Shown piece after piece: positions 5,400 through 62,077 of a stretch of DNA of 64,000 nucleotides (positions are counted from its first letter, which is position 1; each line of letters opens with the position of its first letter). Location: positions 69,923-133,922 of IMG/VR virus record IMGVR_UViG_3300003323_000257. One strand, written 5' to 3'. The DNA is from a virus. Below the pieces are notes generated by a model. It searched no databases. It saw only the letters and a program-made list of their open reading frames with translations, and was not told the DNA's origin. Both the position numbers and the translations under genes were made by a program.

Positions 5400-5410
5400 C
5401 AAATTTAATG
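5400..5410 (+). promoter_or_regulatory. Class-1 (late-type) motif CAAATTTAATG upstream of the portal
   Basis: Member of the recurrent intergenic AATTT(A/T)A motif. Confidence 0.55.
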
Positions 5411-5435: not shown

Positions 5436-7271
5436 GTGTTTCCACGCAACAAAATTCTAGGCGTTCACAATGGACGCATCAAAACAGACATAGGCGGTGC
5501 CTCTCCTATGGCGGCGTACGCCTCTAAGCGATCCTACTCCGAATCTCAAACAAAAGTTACAGCAGCCCTCGGTGGTAATCTGGGTGTAGCAGGTGGAGCA
5601 AATTCGGTTTCTATGAATTCGTTCTGGAACTCGCAGTATCAATATTGGTTCACTGGATTGATTCCTGCCGAGCCAATGTATTCTCAGTCAGCTCAACTGG
5701 CTTTGTTTTATCGGGACATTTACCTCAACGATAGCGTTGGGGGAACGGTAGTCGATTTGCAGTCGAGTTTTCCTTTCTCGGATTTTGATCTCCGAGGTGT
5801 GGATGAACGCGCTACCATCATTTATAATGATGCCATGGAGCAGCTTGATATCCAGCGAATGCTGCCTATCATTAGTACAGCATACCTGGCCGATGGCTTC
5901 TTTGCAGGGTCCTTAATCTTTGATCCAAGAACCAAGCGTTTCGTTGACACGTTGGTTCATGATGCACTCCAATGTGCTATTATTCCAGGCCCGTTCTTTA
6001 ACCTTATGCCTCAGGTTAATGTGCAGACTTCCAGCAGCACTGTTAATCTGCTGGGATCGGATAGTCCTTACGCCAGAGAGTATGTCAATTCTCTACCTCG
6101 TGAGTTCGTGCACCTAATGAATCAAGGTCAGTACACTTTGAGTCCAATCAGCACCTTGTTCGTGGCACGTAAAACTCTGACCGATAGAGCATACGTTTCG
6201 TATCTGCACCGTCTGCTGCCAATGTATCTGATTGAGAAGACGATGTACAGGGGGACTTTAGTAGAGGCGTCTCGCAGGCAAAGGGCGACCACTCATATTA
6301 CGGCAGGTGATGATGTCTGGACCCCAACTGGAGAGGAATTGGCGGCGCTGGTCTCGCAATTCCAACAAGCAGAATTCGATCCATTAGGTGGTTGGGTATC
6401 AACTCGTAACGCAGTTCAGTTGACTGATGTACGACCTGGCGGTGACTTCTGGCGTTGGGATCAAACAGATTTGACTCCATATAAGCTCCGTGCTCTTGGT
6501 GTGTCAGAGTCCTTCCTGAGCGGTGAGACTTCTTACGCAGCTATGGAATCTGCTTACTCCCTGTTCTTGGAATCGCAGAACGTGTATCGAAATCATTTGA
6601 CGAATGCGATTTTCTACTCGACCTTGTTCCCTTTGATTGCGGTTTCCAACGGTTTGTACAAACCAGGCACACCTGAAAGTGCTAAGCTTCGTAACAGCCA
6701 GATCAGCAAATTCTTGATGCACTCCAATAATAAAGCTAATCTACTGATTCCTAAAATCATGTGGCACAAGTCTCTGGAGGCCAAGCACGAGGAATCAACC
6801 TTTGACATGCTGGAGCAGGTGTCCGAAAAAGGCGTTCCTATTCCACTTAAGCAATGGATGGCCGCAGCCGGTCTGGACAAAGATACACTGTTGAAGGATC
6901 TCAAGGAAGACCAGGAGTTACGTAAGCTTCTTAATCGCTATACTGGTAAGGACACCACGCACGAAGGCGAAGACGAAATTGGGGACCAAAAGGAAGAATA
7001 CGCAGGTTTGAAAGTTCCTACTGCACAGTCTATCAAGAAAGGTGTCACTGGTCGACGCTCTATCCTAGGACGTAAATGGGATGATCCTCAGGACTACTCG
7101 ATCGGTAAGACTGGCAAGAAGCAGTATGTTTTCAATTCTCGTTTAAAGGTACGTGATCAGAACGCGCAACTGGCAAAGATTTCGGCAAAAATGAACATCG
7201 ATGCTCACTATCGCCTTCAAGTGGCGAAGCGTAATGAACAAACACTTGGTCAATCCAAATTGGAGATTTAA
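5436..7271 (+). CDS. Portal protein
   Basis: 611 aa, GTG start with AAGGAGG; position after the terminase module; portal-like helical segments (LRALGVSESFLSG, DGFFAGSLIFD). Family call from recall. Confidence 0.75.
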   Translation: MFPRNKILGVHNGRIKTDIGGASPMAAYASKRSYSESQTKVTAALGGNLGVAGGANSVSMNSFWNSQYQYWFTGLIPAEPMYSQSAQLALFYRDIYLNDSVGGTVVDLQSSFPFSDFDLRGVDERATIIYNDAMEQLDIQRMLPIISTAYLADGFFAGSLIFDPRTKRFVDTLVHDALQCAIIPGPFFNLMPQVNVQTSSSTVNLLGSDSPYAREYVNSLPREFVHLMNQGQYTLSPISTLFVARKTLTDRAYVSYLHRLLPMYLIEKTMYRGTLVEASRRQRATTHITAGDDVWTPTGEELAALVSQFQQAEFDPLGGWVSTRNAVQLTDVRPGGDFWRWDQTDLTPYKLRALGVSESFLSGETSYAAMESAYSLFLESQNVYRNHLTNAIFYSTLFPLIAVSNGLYKPGTPESAKLRNSQISKFLMHSNNKANLLIPKIMWHKSLEAKHEESTFDMLEQVSEKGVPIPLKQWMAAAGLDKDTLLKDLKEDQELRKLLNRYTGKDTTHEGEDEIGDQKEEYAGLKVPTAQSIKKGVTGRRSILGRKWDDPQDYSIGKTGKKQYVFNSRLKVRDQNAQLAKISAKMNIDAHYRLQVAKRNEQTLGQSKLEI

Positions 7272-7983: not shown

Positions 7984-7985
7984 CA

Positions 7986-7995
7986 CAATTTAATG
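7986..7995 (+). promoter_or_regulatory. Class-1 motif CAATTTAATG
   Basis: CAATTTAATGACTG identical to 19128-19141; upstream of the baseplate operon. Confidence 0.6.
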
Positions 7996-8181
7996 ACTGT
8001 AGCCTACACGAGGAACTGGGTTTCGTAAGAAACCGACTCGCGGAAGGGTGCAGTCTCTTCGTTTTAGGGGACGGTTAGGTCTGTAGGCCCTCACAACCGT
8101 CCTCTCTTTTTACCCATGGGCGTAGCTGACTCATGAGGATCTTCTCTCCGGCTATTCCCAAGGGTCCTTTTAAAGAGGACC
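7995..8181 (+). ncRNA. Candidate structured RNA element A (four consecutive stem-loops) / structured leader
   Basis: Stems 7995-8005/8045-8055, GGTTTC-GTAA-GAAACC, 8067-8076/8095-8104, 8118-8128/8149-8159, 8163-8169/8175-8181; begins at the end of a CAATTTAATG motif. Confidence 0.55.
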
Positions 8182-8185
8182 ATTC

Positions 8186-9151
8186 ATGGCATCTCTCAAT
8201 GATCTACTTGCAAAGGCACGTTTGACTCCGCCTTCAGCTATTCTGAGTCCTGATGTTCGAAATAATGCGGTTACTCAGTTTAGGTCCACTACCAACCAAA
8301 TTCGAAATATACCGGCATCCATTTTAGATGCTTCTGCTGCAAAGCTTCAAGGTGCTGTTGGTAATGCTGTACAGACTGGATTGTCTGACGTTCGTGGTGC
8401 AGTCGTCCAAGCTTTGAGCGGCGATTTCAGCGGTGCTCTAACAACCATAGCACAGGGCCCTCAGGATGTTCTGGGGATGATTGAAGCATCATTTGGGTCC
8501 AATACCAGCGGTACTCCAAATCCATTCCTAGCTAATGGCGCACCAGTGAACACGCTGCAAGGAGCATTAGGTAGAAGCGATCCACTCATGAGCTTCCAAT
8601 GGTATTGCGATCTGCCGACTGTTACTCCTATCGGAGGCGCCCCTGCAAATCTCTCCTGGGAATATGTGGAGGAAGCAACTCCAAACTTTAGGGTGTTCGA
8701 AGTTCAGTCCATGCACTTTCAAGGCCGCAATCGTAATATTGTAGGCAAGTATTCGGTGGACCCTTTGCGCTTGAATTTCTACGCCGATGTATCGAACACT
8801 GCACTCCTGTATCTGCAGGCATGGAACGGTGCGGTACTTCGTCCGTTTGACGAATCCCAGGCTTCTTCTATGGGCGGTGGCTTCGGAAGACCATCGGACT
8901 ATATGAAGCCCATTAATCTGTACCTGTTTGACCCAACCAAGGCCTTAGTGTTTAACCTTAGCTATACCGAGTGCTGGCCTACTTCCACAGAAGGTTTACA
9001 CCTAGATAGCGGATCATCTACGCGATTGACCTTCAATGTTTCCTTTAGTGTAGGCGATGTTTTCATTCAGGCCCTCAAGATCAATAACAATCTTAGCGGG
9101 CAGTTTTTGCTCAACACCATAACCAATAATCTGCTTTCTGGCATACTCTAA
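8186..9151 (+). CDS. Tail tube-fold baseplate/tube initiator protein (T4 gp48/gp54-like)
   Basis: C-terminal tube-like region (LRLNFYAD...YLQAW...LSYTECWPTS...FNVSFS); first gene of the baseplate operon. Confidence 0.55.
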   Translation: MASLNDLLAKARLTPPSAILSPDVRNNAVTQFRSTTNQIRNIPASILDASAAKLQGAVGNAVQTGLSDVRGAVVQALSGDFSGALTTIAQGPQDVLGMIEASFGSNTSGTPNPFLANGAPVNTLQGALGRSDPLMSFQWYCDLPTVTPIGGAPANLSWEYVEEATPNFRVFEVQSMHFQGRNRNIVGKYSVDPLRLNFYADVSNTALLYLQAWNGAVLRPFDESQASSMGGGFGRPSDYMKPINLYLFDPTKALVFNLSYTECWPTSTEGLHLDSGSSTRLTFNVSFSVGDVFIQALKINNNLSGQFLLNTITNNLLSGIL

Positions 9152-17161: not shown

Positions 17162-18919
17162 ATGGCTCAAGACCTCGTAATTCCGGATACCGCTACCGAT
17201 TTCACCGATTTTGTCAACACGTTCCAAGACTATTTGTCCACAAAAGACGTTTGGCGCGGCACACTGACTACGATGACCTCGCAGACCTTGATTGAGCTTG
17301 TGGCTGCGGTAGGTACTTTCATGGAAGCTCGCAATATCCGCGTTGCTGAAGATGCTTTTGCAGAGACCGCTCAATCGGATGATTCTATCCGATCGATCAC
17401 TCAAATGCAAGGTCTACGTATGACCCGCAAACTGCCTGCGGGTCTGGAAGTTACAATGACTTCTACAATTACGCAGACTATCAATCCGATGACACAGTTC
17501 CTGTGTGCAGGTCAGTACTACTTCAACAGGGAGCAGTTATTCTTCCAAGCCGGTGTGGCTCAAAGTATTACATTGTTCCAAGGGCAGGTGTTTGCCTTTG
17601 CAATGAATGGCTTAGGTAGCCCCCGTCAAACCTTCCTGTCAGACGAGGATGCCTTCGCAGTGTCTGACCAAGACGTGAGGGTATACATCAATAGCACTCT
17701 GATTCCAAAAACATTCGGTACTCTCTGGAATTACAGAGACCTGCCGGCGTACGGTGATCTCACAACCTCAGATGGTCGTCTATTGATCGTGTTTGGCTCC
17801 GAACAATTTGGCTATACTCCATTAGTGGCCGATACAGTAGTGATTCAATACGCCATAACACAAGGTGCTGATGGCTCCAATCAAACACTACAAGGTAAGC
17901 CTGTAACAGTCGACGGCCATCCTGAAATCACAGGGAACGCTACAGCGAATCCTACGGGTGGTGGTGATGAACAGCCGGTGCAGACTTATAAGAACCTGAG
18001 TTCTGGTGCATTTGGTACATACTCTTCGGCTGTGACCAAATCGCAATATCTGGCAACCATCGGTACATATCCAGGTGTAATCGATTCGGTGACTCAAGCA
18101 CAACGCGACATCAACCCAATGGCTTTGGAATGGATGAATGTCATTCGTATTTCTGCACTGACTACCACCCAATGGACGCAGCAACAGCAGCAGGACTACA
18201 TAAAATACCTGCAGACTGTAACGATGTATGCACCTCGATTCGTATGGCAGGATCCTGTTCCAGTGCTTCAAACAATCGAGGTCACGGTCTATTGCTTTAA
18301 CACTGCTATTCTCTCCAAGGTGCAGGCAGACTGTGAGGCCAAAATTGAGCAATTGTTTGCTCCGCGCAGTGGCTTGTTGATGACCAACTTCTATAACTAC
18401 GATTTGGAGAACGCTTGTCGTATTGCAGGAGCTGGTGCTGTTTCGTACGTAAAGGTTACCAAACCTGTCGATCCAATGATTGTGACTGCCCCTCCTAGCC
18501 CTTCTGTTGAATACGAAATCATCACGGGTGCAGGTACACTTACCCCTCTGGTGTATGCGTATGGTATATCTGCTGTTAATGCTGATGGAGAAGAAGGCCC
18601 GCCGGCTAACTGGGTGTTCCCGCAAATCACCAAAGTGATGGGTAACTCAAACTCAGTTAAGCTAACGTGGCTCCCTTTAGAAATTGCAGTGTCCTACAAG
18701 GTATATGGACGTAAGGCAGGTTCTGTTGGATTGCTGGCCACCATACCAGCTACGAATCCTCTAACTTTCACAGACGATGGCAGCATTACTCCTGGTGTCG
18801 CCCCTCCAGGAACAGCCAATGTACCAATTCGCTACAACAAGATCCAGCAGTTGACCGTCAACGTGGTGTTTGCAGAACGTCAGCAGCGCATTCAAGACAC
18901 TCCAACTAGGCTAGCATAA
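17162..18919 (+). CDS. Baseplate wedge protein (T4 gp6 / P2 gpJ-like)
   Basis: EDAFAETAQ, QYAITQGADG, GGGDEQ...AVTKSQY motifs; start reassigned to ATG 17162; FnIII-like C-terminal extension. Confidence 0.85.
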   Translation: MAQDLVIPDTATDFTDFVNTFQDYLSTKDVWRGTLTTMTSQTLIELVAAVGTFMEARNIRVAEDAFAETAQSDDSIRSITQMQGLRMTRKLPAGLEVTMTSTITQTINPMTQFLCAGQYYFNREQLFFQAGVAQSITLFQGQVFAFAMNGLGSPRQTFLSDEDAFAVSDQDVRVYINSTLIPKTFGTLWNYRDLPAYGDLTTSDGRLLIVFGSEQFGYTPLVADTVVIQYAITQGADGSNQTLQGKPVTVDGHPEITGNATANPTGGGDEQPVQTYKNLSSGAFGTYSSAVTKSQYLATIGTYPGVIDSVTQAQRDINPMALEWMNVIRISALTTTQWTQQQQQDYIKYLQTVTMYAPRFVWQDPVPVLQTIEVTVYCFNTAILSKVQADCEAKIEQLFAPRSGLLMTNFYNYDLENACRIAGAGAVSYVKVTKPVDPMIVTAPPSPSVEYEIITGAGTLTPLVYAYGISAVNADGEEGPPANWVFPQITKVMGNSNSVKLTWLPLEIAVSYKVYGRKAGSVGLLATIPATNPLTFTDDGSITPGVAPPGTANVPIRYNKIQQLTVNVVFAERQQRIQDTPTRLA

Positions 18920-18920
18920 T

Positions 18921-19118
18921 ATGGTCTATATGTACAAGCATGGCAATCGTTACTTCGTTGCCGAAGGCTCTTCACTGGAAGAGGCTGTAATCAAGTTCTT
19001 TAACATGATTCTCAGTACTCCTAGTTCTAAAACGTTTGAAGTTGGAGGTATAACAGTGACTGAATGTCCTGAACGAATGGTCTCAACACCTGAACTACGA
19101 GAGGTCATGTATAGGTGA
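18921..19118 (+). CDS. Small hypothetical protein in the homing-endonuclease cassette
   Basis: 65 aa, TAA-T-ATG coupled to the gp6-like gene. Confidence 0.5.
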   Translation: MVYMYKHGNRYFVAEGSSLEEAVIKFFNMILSTPSSKTFEVGGITVTECPERMVSTPELREVMYR

Positions 19119-19127
19119 TAACTCCGA

Positions 19128-19137
19128 CAATTTAATG
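19128..19137 (+). promoter_or_regulatory. Class-1 motif CAATTTAATG
   Basis: Upstream of element B and the GIY-YIG gene. Confidence 0.6.
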
Positions 19138-19229
19138 ACTGAACGCGTGAGGGAAAAGGCCGGCCAGCCCTGCGATGCCGCAATCATCGCTACCTCTCGT
19201 GGTTCAGTCACCTAACTATTGCGGAGTTA
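19136..19229 (+). ncRNA. Candidate structured RNA element B (multi-way junction with kissing loop) in front of the GIY-YIG gene
   Basis: P1 TGACTGAAC/GTTCAGTCA, GCGTGAGG/CCTCTCGT, GGC/GCC, GCGATG/CATCGC, TAACT/AGTTA; loop CCGCAAT exactly complementary to loop ATTGCGG. Confidence 0.65.
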
Positions 19230-19233
19230 TCAG

Positions 19234-20239
19234 ATGTCTCGTTCAGAACGAATGGCACCTTTAGCTGCCATTATCAATTCCTATAAGACCAATACTCAGC
19301 CATATACCAACTACCTACACAACTTAGCTGCATTAGCTATCCAACTCAAGAGCCTCAAAGATGACCGATGGATTCTAGAAGAGGAGCTATGCGAGCACTA
19401 CGTTTACGTGTACCTAGATCAACGTAAACCACATGGAAAATACAAATATGTTTGTCCAAGTGGTAGGATTGTAGCGTTCCCACATCCACCTTTCTATGTT
19501 GGCAAGGGAAAACACGGAAGAGTGGATGCTCATCTAAGTGAAGCAGAAAAGCGCAAAGGAAAACCTGGCCAACACGGACATAAACTAAATACTATCTGGG
19601 CCATTCAAGATGAACTTGGTGTCGATCCAATTAGGATAGTTACAGCTTCATTGCAAACAGATTGGATGGCACAAGCCTTAGAGATAGACCTCATAGCTGG
19701 AATAGGAAGAAAAAATCTCAAACTAGGACCTTTAACCAATCTAACAAATGGTGGAGACGGAAGTAGTGGAAACGTACCGACTGTAGAGGCTAGATTAAAA
19801 GCTAGTGAATCTAATAAAGGTATGAAGTTTTCCAGTGTTTCTGTGAGAAAGCGGGTAAAAACCAGAACACTACGCGGTAGGTACGCTGTTCCTCTTGAGC
19901 GTCGCAAAAAGATAGGTAACAAGCTAACAGGTCGTAAGAATGGACCACCTTCTGAGGAAACTCGTAAAAAGATAAGTGTGTCCAACACAGGAAAAATAAT
20001 CTCAGAGGAAACAAGGAGAAGACAGCGTGAGGCAAAGCTAGGTGGTTCTCTATCAAAAAAATCATAGAAAACATATAAGTGAATCTATGAAAAATTATAA
20101 AATGACAGACGAACACAGAAAAAATCTAAGTAAGAGTGCACAAAATCAACCTATTGCCAGATGTCCGCACTGCCCTATGTCAGGTAAACTAGGTGCCATG
20201 ACGCGCTGGCATTTTAATAATTGTAGACACCGAACATAA
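19234..20239 (+). mobile_element. Free-standing GIY-YIG (LEM-3-like) homing endonuclease with NUMOD3 repeats, split by a frameshift at an A7 run
   Basis: YVYVYLD...FYVGKG...R...E...LTNLTNGGDG; SEETRKKIS repeats; the second frame (to 20239) carries the usual CPHC...MTRWHFNNC end. Confidence 0.85.
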
Positions 20240-20240
20240 T

Positions 20241-21437
20241 ATGGAAACTGCTAAAGAGCGACAGCGTTTAGGAATTACAGTTCCTCGTAGTACATTACTC
20301 CCTCCTTATCTGGCGTCGAATGACTATTTTATTGAATACTGCAATGCAATGGACACTATATACGGTCCTACCATTGACTCCCAATTGAATGTACTTAAAA
20401 ACATAAGAAACGTTTGGCCACAGAGCCCTCAAACAGAAACCTATGTAGATTCCAATCAGATAATTCCAAGTGAAGCCTGGCCTAGGTTTAGTAGAGATTT
20501 AATTGTTAAAATCACCAACAGCCTCGGAATGAAGCTCCAATCGGCAGGTGTGGTATCTGACGATGCATACCAAACGATCAGTAGATTTGTAGGCATGTAT
20601 TGGTTCGGGAAGGGTACTGGGGCTTTTATAGAATTCATCAACTACTGTTTGTCTTCGGATTTTCAAGTGTTCAACCTGTGGACAACAGACTACGTGAACT
20701 TTGTTCCAGAGGGGGACTCCTCTATAGGTACACCAATATGGGATGGGGGCCCCTGGTATCCAACAACTCATGTGCTAATAGAAGCGCACGGAGGTCTGCA
20801 AGGCATTGATATTCTGACCCTTCAGCAATTTTTCTACGAAATTGCAAACTACAATTTGGTGCTACAGGCCATCGATGCTTCATTTGATATGTACATTGTG
20901 CCAGATAACACTCCTGACGGAAAGACCGCAGACATAGTTGCTATGGGGCTGGCTAATGATTTCCAAGTTGTGCTATCCAACTTCGTTAATCGCGGCGCGG
21001 CACCTCCTCCGATGTTTGCGACCGAGCAGTTACCATCTACCTATTACGCTATGGGCGGAGTGGATGCAGACTTCTCTACGGCCTTCCTGTTGGCACAACC
21101 TACCGGATGGACGTACATAGACGACGCGCTGACCATGAAGGTGCCGGTGTACAATACGCATGCTCAATTGGTAACCGATGAGGCTGACATTGGAGTAAAG
21201 CTTGTAGGTAATAATGGACCACAGTTTAATCTCCTGTATGGACCAGTTCAATGGATGAAGGTACCTGGCTCTTCAAGCTCGAATGCACGCATTCCATACT
21301 TCACTACTGGAAGTTCCACTATCAAAGATGGTGTTCAGGTTTCAGCACGTGCTGTAGGTATGCAGCGCACACAATTACTGGTTAATCCAACAGGTTTCTT
21401 CCAATTGGCCCCAGGACAATATGTCCCATACTGGTAA
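20241..21437 (+). CDS. Baseplate wedge protein (gp7/gpI-like)
   Basis: Follows the gp6-like gene; LLPPYL and YWFGKGT...FINYCL...WYPTTHV pattern. Confidence 0.6.
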   Translation: METAKERQRLGITVPRSTLLPPYLASNDYFIEYCNAMDTIYGPTIDSQLNVLKNIRNVWPQSPQTETYVDSNQIIPSEAWPRFSRDLIVKITNSLGMKLQSAGVVSDDAYQTISRFVGMYWFGKGTGAFIEFINYCLSSDFQVFNLWTTDYVNFVPEGDSSIGTPIWDGGPWYPTTHVLIEAHGGLQGIDILTLQQFFYEIANYNLVLQAIDASFDMYIVPDNTPDGKTADIVAMGLANDFQVVLSNFVNRGAAPPPMFATEQLPSTYYAMGGVDADFSTAFLLAQPTGWTYIDDALTMKVPVYNTHAQLVTDEADIGVKLVGNNGPQFNLLYGPVQWMKVPGSSSSNARIPYFTTGSSTIKDGVQVSARAVGMQRTQLLVNPTGFFQLAPGQYVPYW

Positions 21438-61599: not shown

Positions 61600-62003
61600 G
61601 ATTGGATCTTTCTTAAGAAGGATGAATGCCATCGACCTTTAGGCTCGGCCAACATTGTGCCGTCAGGGTGTGGATCAAAGAAAGGCACACCGTTCTTGCC
61701 AACTACAGCATGACCAATGTTGGGATTCCTTGGAGACGGACCACTCATGAAGTGATACACATCAGGCATACCTGGACGCCAGTAGTAAACCAGCGAAGTT
61801 TGCCAGGCGATCTCGTATCCGTGTTTAAGCAGGAACTCCTCGACTGCATTATAGCATTCGTAGGCACGACCTTCAGCTTGTTCAAGGAAGTGCGGAACTT
61901 CCTGAATCGGAAGATCAAGAAGAGATGCAAACACGGCACGCATGCAATCACCGTATATCCTTGGCTCTTCCTGATAGAACTGTGTTTGATATTGCGGAGT
62001 CAT
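61596..62003 (-). CDS. Papain-like (peptidase C39-like) fold protein
   Basis: GDCMRA (Cys), GHAVV (His), FDPHP (Asp); start reassigned to ATG 62003. Confidence 0.55.
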   Translation of the reverse strand: MTPQYQTQFYQEEPRIYGDCMRAVFASLLDLPIQEVPHFLEQAEGRAYECYNAVEEFLLKHGYEIAWQTSLVYYWRPGMPDVYHFMSGPSPRNPNIGHAVVGKNGVPFFDPHPDGTMLAEPKGRWHSSFLRKIQS

Positions 62004-62004
62004 T

Positions 62005-62077
62005 CTATCCTCTATAGGATAGCCGAGTCTCAAAGCTTCCTCGGCGTGAGGGCTGGCTCAATTGCTAAGAGACTCGG
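62005..62077 (-). ncRNA. Candidate structured leader element C
   Basis: CCGAGTCTC/GAGACTCGG 9-bp stem enclosing 37 nt, then a CTATCCT-ATAG-AGGATAG hairpin covering the SD; downstream of CAATTTAACC. Confidence 0.55.

Follow-up and report, generated by a model that had tools for sequence, protein, structure and literature searches.

The gene for a GIY-YIG homing endonuclease in the window, i.e. the whole stretch of 64,000 nucleotides analysed here (positions 69,923 to 133,922 of the IMG/VR virus record IMGVR_UViG_3300003323_000257), is preceded by a structured leader RNA, a cassette-borne member of a widespread uncatalogued family, that is probably a cis-acting translational lock on this selfish nuclease gene. 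Leaders of this family are roughly 100 nt long, share a covarying three-way junction, travel with the gene that they precede and are associated with unrelated nuclease families. Most likely, the leader would keep nuclease production low; we infer this repression from geometry and from nearest-neighbour energies, which do not model kissing loops.

The source is a viral record of 134 kb, about 57% complete, from a jumbo myovirus whose relatives include Ralstonia phage phiRSL1 and Burkholderia phage BCSR5 (portal proteins 49-51% identical), and the leader is located in its baseplate and tail module. The gene behind the leader (19234..20067, + strand) has a reading frame of 277 aa and was identified as a GIY-YIG homing endonuclease gene with a NUMOD3 motif by Pfam (PF22945 and PF07460), by a PHROG of homing endonucleases and by its homologues. 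A C-terminal zinc-finger part (CPHC...WHFNNC) is encoded in the +1 frame (20042..20239, + strand) and matches the in-frame C terminus of the homologue P0007 (E = 2e-10). The two nuclease frames are split at a run of seven A (20055-20061) and removing one A would fuse them; the split could reflect a sequencing error in the homopolymer, a genuine frameshift or slippage during transcription.

The gene and its leader form a free-standing cassette of 1.1 kb (~19119-20240). In eight related contigs with baseplate proteins 66-79% identical to those of the window, there is no nuclease between the baseplate gene and the next tail gene, and in five of the eight the 65-aa gene is kept and followed directly by the next tail gene. 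The whole 1.1-kb cassette is absent from these relatives (L008-L014 among them), and we therefore conclude that leader and gene arrived together. In the cassette-free L008, the next tail gene begins with a TTG codon that is overlapped by the 65-aa gene (6960-6985). In the window, the cassette sits exactly between the 65-aa gene (stop codon at 19116-19118) and the next tail gene, the ATG of which (20241) lies one base after the stop of the nuclease tail and has no visible Shine-Dalgarno (SD) sequence; this tail gene may rely on translational coupling with the nuclease frame.

In the leader RNA (19119-19236, all features on the + strand), the gap of 115 nt in front of the GIY-YIG gene adopts a three-way junction (P1, P2 and P3) with the SD hairpin P4 behind it. 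The sequence-only reading had described an almost complete fold of this gap, and all elements that it listed are present. The 5' strand of P1 (19136..19152) contributes nine outer pairs and eight inner positions and covaries across 16 leaders. The outer stem (19136-19144/19202-19210) consists of nine exact pairs read from the sequence. The inner stem, which had been proposed as an extension of the outer one, is real, but its 3' strand had been placed off by one (19194-19201): it lies at 19193-19200 and forms seven pairs (one G-U) and one U-U mismatch with 19145-19152, leaving G19201 as an unpaired bulge between the two stems. The junction core (19153..19171) is composed of J1/2 (GAAAA, 19153-19157), the P2 hairpin (three pairs, 19158-19160/19167-19169, with a 6-nt loop at 19161-19166) and J2/3 (CU). 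The P3 hairpin (19172-19177/19185-19190) exposes the 7-nt loop CCGCAAT (19178-19184), which is the anti-SD kissing loop, and J3/1 (UA, 19191-19192) leads into the 3' strand of P1, the two together spanning 19191..19210. Separated from P1 by a linker of 2 nt, P4 (19213-19217/19225-19229) has the 7-nt loop ATTGCGG (19218-19224); the SD sequence GGAG (19223-19226) spans this loop and the 3' side of the stem, and the start codon ATG of the nuclease (19234-19236) lies downstream of P4.

The P3 loop is the reverse complement of the P4 loop at seven of seven positions. We estimate that a 7-nt complement anywhere within 115 nt is not rare (~0.3 to 0.4 expected); the kiss between P3 and P4 is regarded as beyond chance because the loops covary in homologues, and not because of this single match. 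The region 19119-19240 has a folding energy of -45.4 kcal/mol (z = -4.7), and 0 of 200 shuffles were as good. The SD region has a third possible partner beyond P4 and the kiss, i.e. the 5' segment 19119-19130, and in the minimum-energy fold the SD is paired in an outer stem (19119-19130/19219-19229) that replaces P4 and encloses the entire region, so that P4 and the kiss are alternative pairings. By itself, P4 of the window leader has an energy of only -0.5 kcal/mol and the loop-loop duplex one of about -9.9 kcal/mol, while P4 alone ranges from 0 to -4.3 kcal/mol and the duplex from about -5.5 to -10 kcal/mol in the family, all being nearest-neighbour values in which kissing loops are not modelled. 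P4 is marginal on these values and the kiss supplies most of the stability; therefore, it would be the kiss that hides the SD.

The nine closest homologues of the nuclease (39-56% identity) were located on contigs via the protein alone, a collection unbiased for the RNA, and all nine carry the same leader 107-167 nt upstream. The genomic sites of their cassettes differ, and both orientations relative to the neighbouring genes occur, some cassettes being divergent from both neighbours. The junction core is letter-for-letter identical in these nine leaders while the flanking stems and loops vary. Further members came from pattern scans, two covariance models and one blastn search, resulting in a total of 41 distinct leaders from phage contigs and from two cultured jumbo phages, Burkholderia phage BCSR5 (MW460245.1, 149338-149435) and Erwinia phage pEa_SNUABM_22 (MZ443785.1, 106262-106368), in both of which the leader region is unannotated intergenic sequence. 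The covariance-model scores of the window leader are 103.7 bits (R1) and 96.8 bits (R2). J1/2 is GAAAA in 40 of the 41 leaders and CUG (J2/3 and the first base of P3) follows P2 in 39, but 24 of the 41 were found with a pattern demanding the core letters and the invariance of the core is overstated in that set. The P2 loops are of four types. In total, about 20 near-invariant nucleotides in the junction and P2 stand beside freely varying stems and loops.

Searches in other collections added few members. When the cassette DNA, the window's own leader and two other leader variants were compared with the phage GenBank collection, only the window's own leader gave matches, to BCSR5 and pEa_SNUABM_22; two other member contigs had no match among cultured phages by megablast, an exact scan of viral contigs for the P3 hairpin gave nothing, and no second copy of the leader was found in the 134-kb record. 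Exact scans of metagenome and genome collections with the 20-nt core returned mostly coding-sequence coincidences in G+C-rich bacteria, with L134 and L140 as the only true new members; all 14 genome matches were rejected as false. Two contigs of a related phage from one sample, L119 and L017, break inside the leader with the 5' half on one and the 3' half on the other, which would be expected if several leader copies confuse assembly. Another element of the window, 61990-62052 (element C), was considered as a relative of the leader (element B): it shares an 11-mer and a 9-mer with the leader, probably by chance, and has neither the junction core nor a match to the covariance model. By our estimate, a query of 118 nt should have some three 11-mer matches on the two strands of 64 kb by chance.

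In a search with Rfam 15, nothing reached the gathering score in the window and nothing overlapped the leader at E up to 10 in 18800-20400; similarly, five other member leaders gave nothing at E up to 1. Moreover, full-text literature searching found no description of the leader motif. The earlier suggestion that this is an undescribed structured RNA agrees with these results and with the conservation of the leader.

Covariation was analysed in 16 leaders for the junction. Here, 97.9% of the cells are in standard pairs, in a covariance-model alignment that leans towards the modelled structure, and compensatory changes are present at 13 of the 18 pairs; 0 of 500 shuffles reached any of five measures, and pairing dropped to 20-49% when partners were slid. 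P3 has compensatory changes at five of its six stem pairs. By contrast, P2 is nearly invariant (one C-G to U-G change) and is supported by conservation only.

P4 and the loops stayed out of register in the covariance-model realignment, and kiss and P4 were for this reason counted by custom scripts. The first 16 leaders have 12 distinct loop sequences, and the complement of each loop to its own partner averages 6.3 nt, i.e. approximately the whole loop, compared with 3.3 nt for a loop against the SD region of another leader. Without hand-picked loops, a complement of at least 6 nt is present in 40 of the 41 leaders as opposed to 11% of mismatched pairs, and complementarity is maintained through more than 20 different sequences. 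The exception is L109, which has a ParB-like gene and a kiss of only four contiguous pairs. In the 16 leaders, a P4 stem of 3-6 pairs with compensatory changes directly flanks the kissing partner (mean 4.3 pairs versus 0.56 when slid), and the kissing pairing always covers the SD purines. Because P4 directly flanks the partner, this is a true loop-loop kiss that leaves no loop nucleotide unpaired. In total, P1, P3, P4 and the kiss all covary in homologues, so that the exact 7-nt kiss noticed in the single sequence is real and the check for loop-loop compensation that was to accompany it came out positive.

The genes behind the leaders encode GIY-YIG nucleases with or without an N-terminal helical segment, HNH nucleases, endonuclease VII-type nucleases, other proteins of homing-endonuclease PHROGs or DUF7487, and in one case a ParB-like protein. 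We conclude from the unrelated nuclease families behind the leader that it is a portable module and not the partner of one protein domain. Occurrence is sporadic in diverse phages, and the cassettes contain no gene besides the one behind the leader. A set of 80 more distant GIY-YIG loci yielded no more than two complete leaders and a third truncated at a contig end, and there is one leader in BCSR5 and none in its relatives phiRSL1, BcepSauron and Motura. In L110 (2560-5860), a leader with a weaker kiss precedes a ParB-like gene, which is followed by genes for a helicase and a Toprim primase; a sigma-70-like promoter immediately precedes this leader, and 11 contigs contain the same sequence.

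Transcripts containing the leader could arise in two ways. A promoter-like motif, CAATTTAAT (19128..19136, + strand), is a putative late-type promoter. Its core, AATTT[AT]AT, occurs seven times in the 134-kb record. Six of these copies lie between genes and share the orientation of the gene that follows, namely those in the window at 5402, 7987, 19129 and 51518 (+ strand) and 40735 (- strand) and one 4203 nt before the window (- strand); the portal gene and the tail tube gene each have such a copy in front of them. Most homologous leaders are preceded by this motif as well. AATTT[AT]AT is probably a late promoter of the phage group to which the window belongs; a scan for sigma-70 promoters and terminators gave nothing near the window leader. 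The ~190-nt structured gap before the tail tube gene (element A, 7985-8186) starts with the same 15 nt as the leader, i.e. the promoter motif and GACTG.

The motif at 19128-19136 lies between the arms of an outer anti-SD stem, the 5' segment of which (19119..19131, + strand) starts directly behind the stop of the 65-aa gene and has 19218-19229 as its partner. In L107, this segment has changed together with the P4 loop, and it is also present in L102 and L105. If transcription starts ~7 nt after the motif, the outer nine P1 pairs would be missing from promoter-made transcripts. In L015 (100-170), from a related phage with a 34%-identical nuclease, there is the motif, an overlapping 5' anti-SD segment and an SD, and no three-way junction.

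These features are consistent with the following mechanism. The three-way junction would position P3 such that its whole 6-7-nt loop pairs with the whole P4 loop; by geometry, the junction presumably turns P3 back along P1, and P3, the kiss and P4 could then form about 17-18 stacked pairs beside P1. P3 is transcribed before P4 and the kiss could form once the SD emerges. Together with the weak P4 stem, the kiss would conceal the ribosome-binding site and result in low translation of a potentially toxic nuclease. In read-through transcripts from the baseplate genes, pairing of 19119-19131 with the SD region may provide a second lock, and the kiss would be an additional lock that persists in transcripts made from the promoter. 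The lock may be constitutive or relieved by a signal. The ~20 near-invariant junction and P2 nucleotides seem to exceed what a plain SD trap needs, which is a hint of a ligand, a protein or a tertiary contact.

This apparent surplus bears on a reading in which the leader is a sensor, i.e. a universal ligand of the junction, either a small molecule or a host factor (for example a ribosomal protein or an RNase), toggles the kiss on binding, making nuclease translation conditional rather than simply low. We regard this reading, which refines the lock and does not exclude it, as possible but rather unlikely. Near-invariant junction strands and P2 beside variable stems and loops are also seen in riboswitch aptamers, and the kiss with the SD is an expression platform joined to the junction; moreover, from cassettes without a second gene that occur sporadically in diverse phages, it follows that any effector acting in trans must be universal. 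However, no Rfam riboswitch matches, the association with nuclease genes only points to no metabolite, and no covariation in support of a separate ON-state fold was seen. We are equally tentative about a new class of RNA switch in which the junction and P2 would sense a universal molecule or factor, or a second copy of the RNA, to gate the kiss. If leader copies dimerised via the P2 loop, repression would depend on RNA concentration. A palindrome of 4 or 6 nt is found in three of the four P2 loop types (29 of the 41 leaders), that of the window loop (19161-19166) among them, but the second commonest type (12 of 41) has no palindrome of at least 4 nt and self-complementarity is not a rule of the family; as a GGCC core of 4 nt, in a loop of 6 nt on a stem of three pairs, is also a weak interface, dimerisation appears improbable.

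Three further readings concern functions other than SD pairing, and each is less probable still. The sequence-only reading had named a ribozyme and a nuclease-associated RNA among its options. An RNA that processes the nuclease mRNA at its 5' end, by self-cleavage or some other catalysis, would fit the compactness of the three-way junction, its invariant nucleotides and the placement of the leader at the 5' edge of cassettes that have entered operons. This option does not hold up well: Rfam contains no ribozyme model that matches, even at E up to 10, the strand lengths of the junction (5, 2 and 2 nt) do not suit a hammerhead core, and the SD purines are always part of the conserved tertiary pairing, for which a ribozyme acting in processing would have no use, making catalysis very improbable. 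A CUGAUGA stretch in one subtype was considered as part of a hammerhead and rejected; it belongs to P1, which there has a 3x3 internal loop flanked by covarying pairs. The N-terminal helical segment of the nuclease had also been put forward as a partner of the RNA, and autoregulation by binding of the leader through this segment would be in line with its conservation in the GIY-YIG subfamily of the window and with the leader in all nine closest homologues. Here the evidence points the other way, as the leader also precedes nucleases of unrelated folds and GIY-YIG genes without the segment (L117, L134, L140 and L042), while L016, a homologue of 45% identity, has the segment and no leader; we consider autoregulation of this kind highly improbable. 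The same low probability is given to a conserved sequence that acts as DNA, i.e. as an operator or a site of cassette recombination, with the RNA fold being incidental. The core is better conserved than the proteins, and I-TevI represses its own promoter by operator binding (PMC2988022); against this, the compensatory changes in P1, P3, P4 and the kiss preserve pairs and not sequence, one operator could not serve unrelated nuclease families, and orientation and distance to the start codon are fixed.

A translational lock has precedents. In phage T4, homing-endonuclease genes have RNA structures that sequester the ribosome-binding site and embed late promoters, and a late promoter inside such a structure gives rise to transcripts without the inhibitory 5' arm (PMC2988022). 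As in I-TevI, I-TevII, I-TevIII, segB and Aeh1 mobE, the mRNA structure described here conceals the SD of a homing endonuclease, and the outer stem (19119-19131/19218-19229) with the promoter-like motif between its arms follows the T4-like plan, as does L015. Each of the T4 structures is one local hairpin, and their sequences are not conserved from gene to gene, whereas here a conserved three-way junction offers a second anti-SD in a hairpin loop, the kiss would lock the SD, and one module is common to unrelated nuclease families in many phages; the early impression that the leader is more elaborate than a single T4-type SD hairpin was correct. Thus, SD occlusion of homing-endonuclease mRNA is known, and the conserved junction-plus-kiss module across nuclease families is new.

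Parallels also exist outside homing-endonuclease mRNAs. The loops of ColE1 RNA I/RNA II and HIV TAR-TAR* are fully complementary over 6-7 nt and can stack quasi-continuously; these complexes are intermolecular, whereas the kiss in the leader is intramolecular, is scaffolded by a junction and has the SD in one of its loops. Loop-loop or loop-SD pairing is present in the purine (L2-L3), guanidine-II, preQ1-II/III and SAM-II riboswitches and leaders, which resemble the leader in having conserved junction nucleotides, variable stems and a tertiary pairing that governs access to the SD, and differ from it in that they control metabolic genes rather than nuclease genes; their Rfam models give no match. 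Structured RNA immediately 5' of a mobile nuclease gene is likewise known from the HEARO/omega RNA of IscB, a guide-RNA scaffold of several hundred nt, and from the lariat-capping ribozyme before I-DirI, an intron-borne fold of ~190 nt derived from group I that processes the 5' end of the mRNA upstream of homing-endonuclease genes in twin-ribozyme introns. Unlike the leader, neither of these pairs with an SD.

Homing endonucleases must be made in tiny, well-timed amounts, and the controls known so far are gene-specific hairpins in T4-like phages. To these, the leader adds a conserved modular RNA device that has been adopted by unrelated nuclease families and travels between phages. As natural evidence for a kissing complex that is both intramolecular and fully paired, it is unusually clean, and it offers a test case of the way in which a long-range loop-loop contact is steered by a three-way junction; moreover, it is a ready candidate for Rfam and a compact natural part for tight translational control. 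BCSR5 and pEa_SNUABM_22 carry the leader, making direct testing possible in cultured phages. If the leader does prove to be a switch, the selfish nucleases of many phage lineages would share a portable sensor that times their expression.
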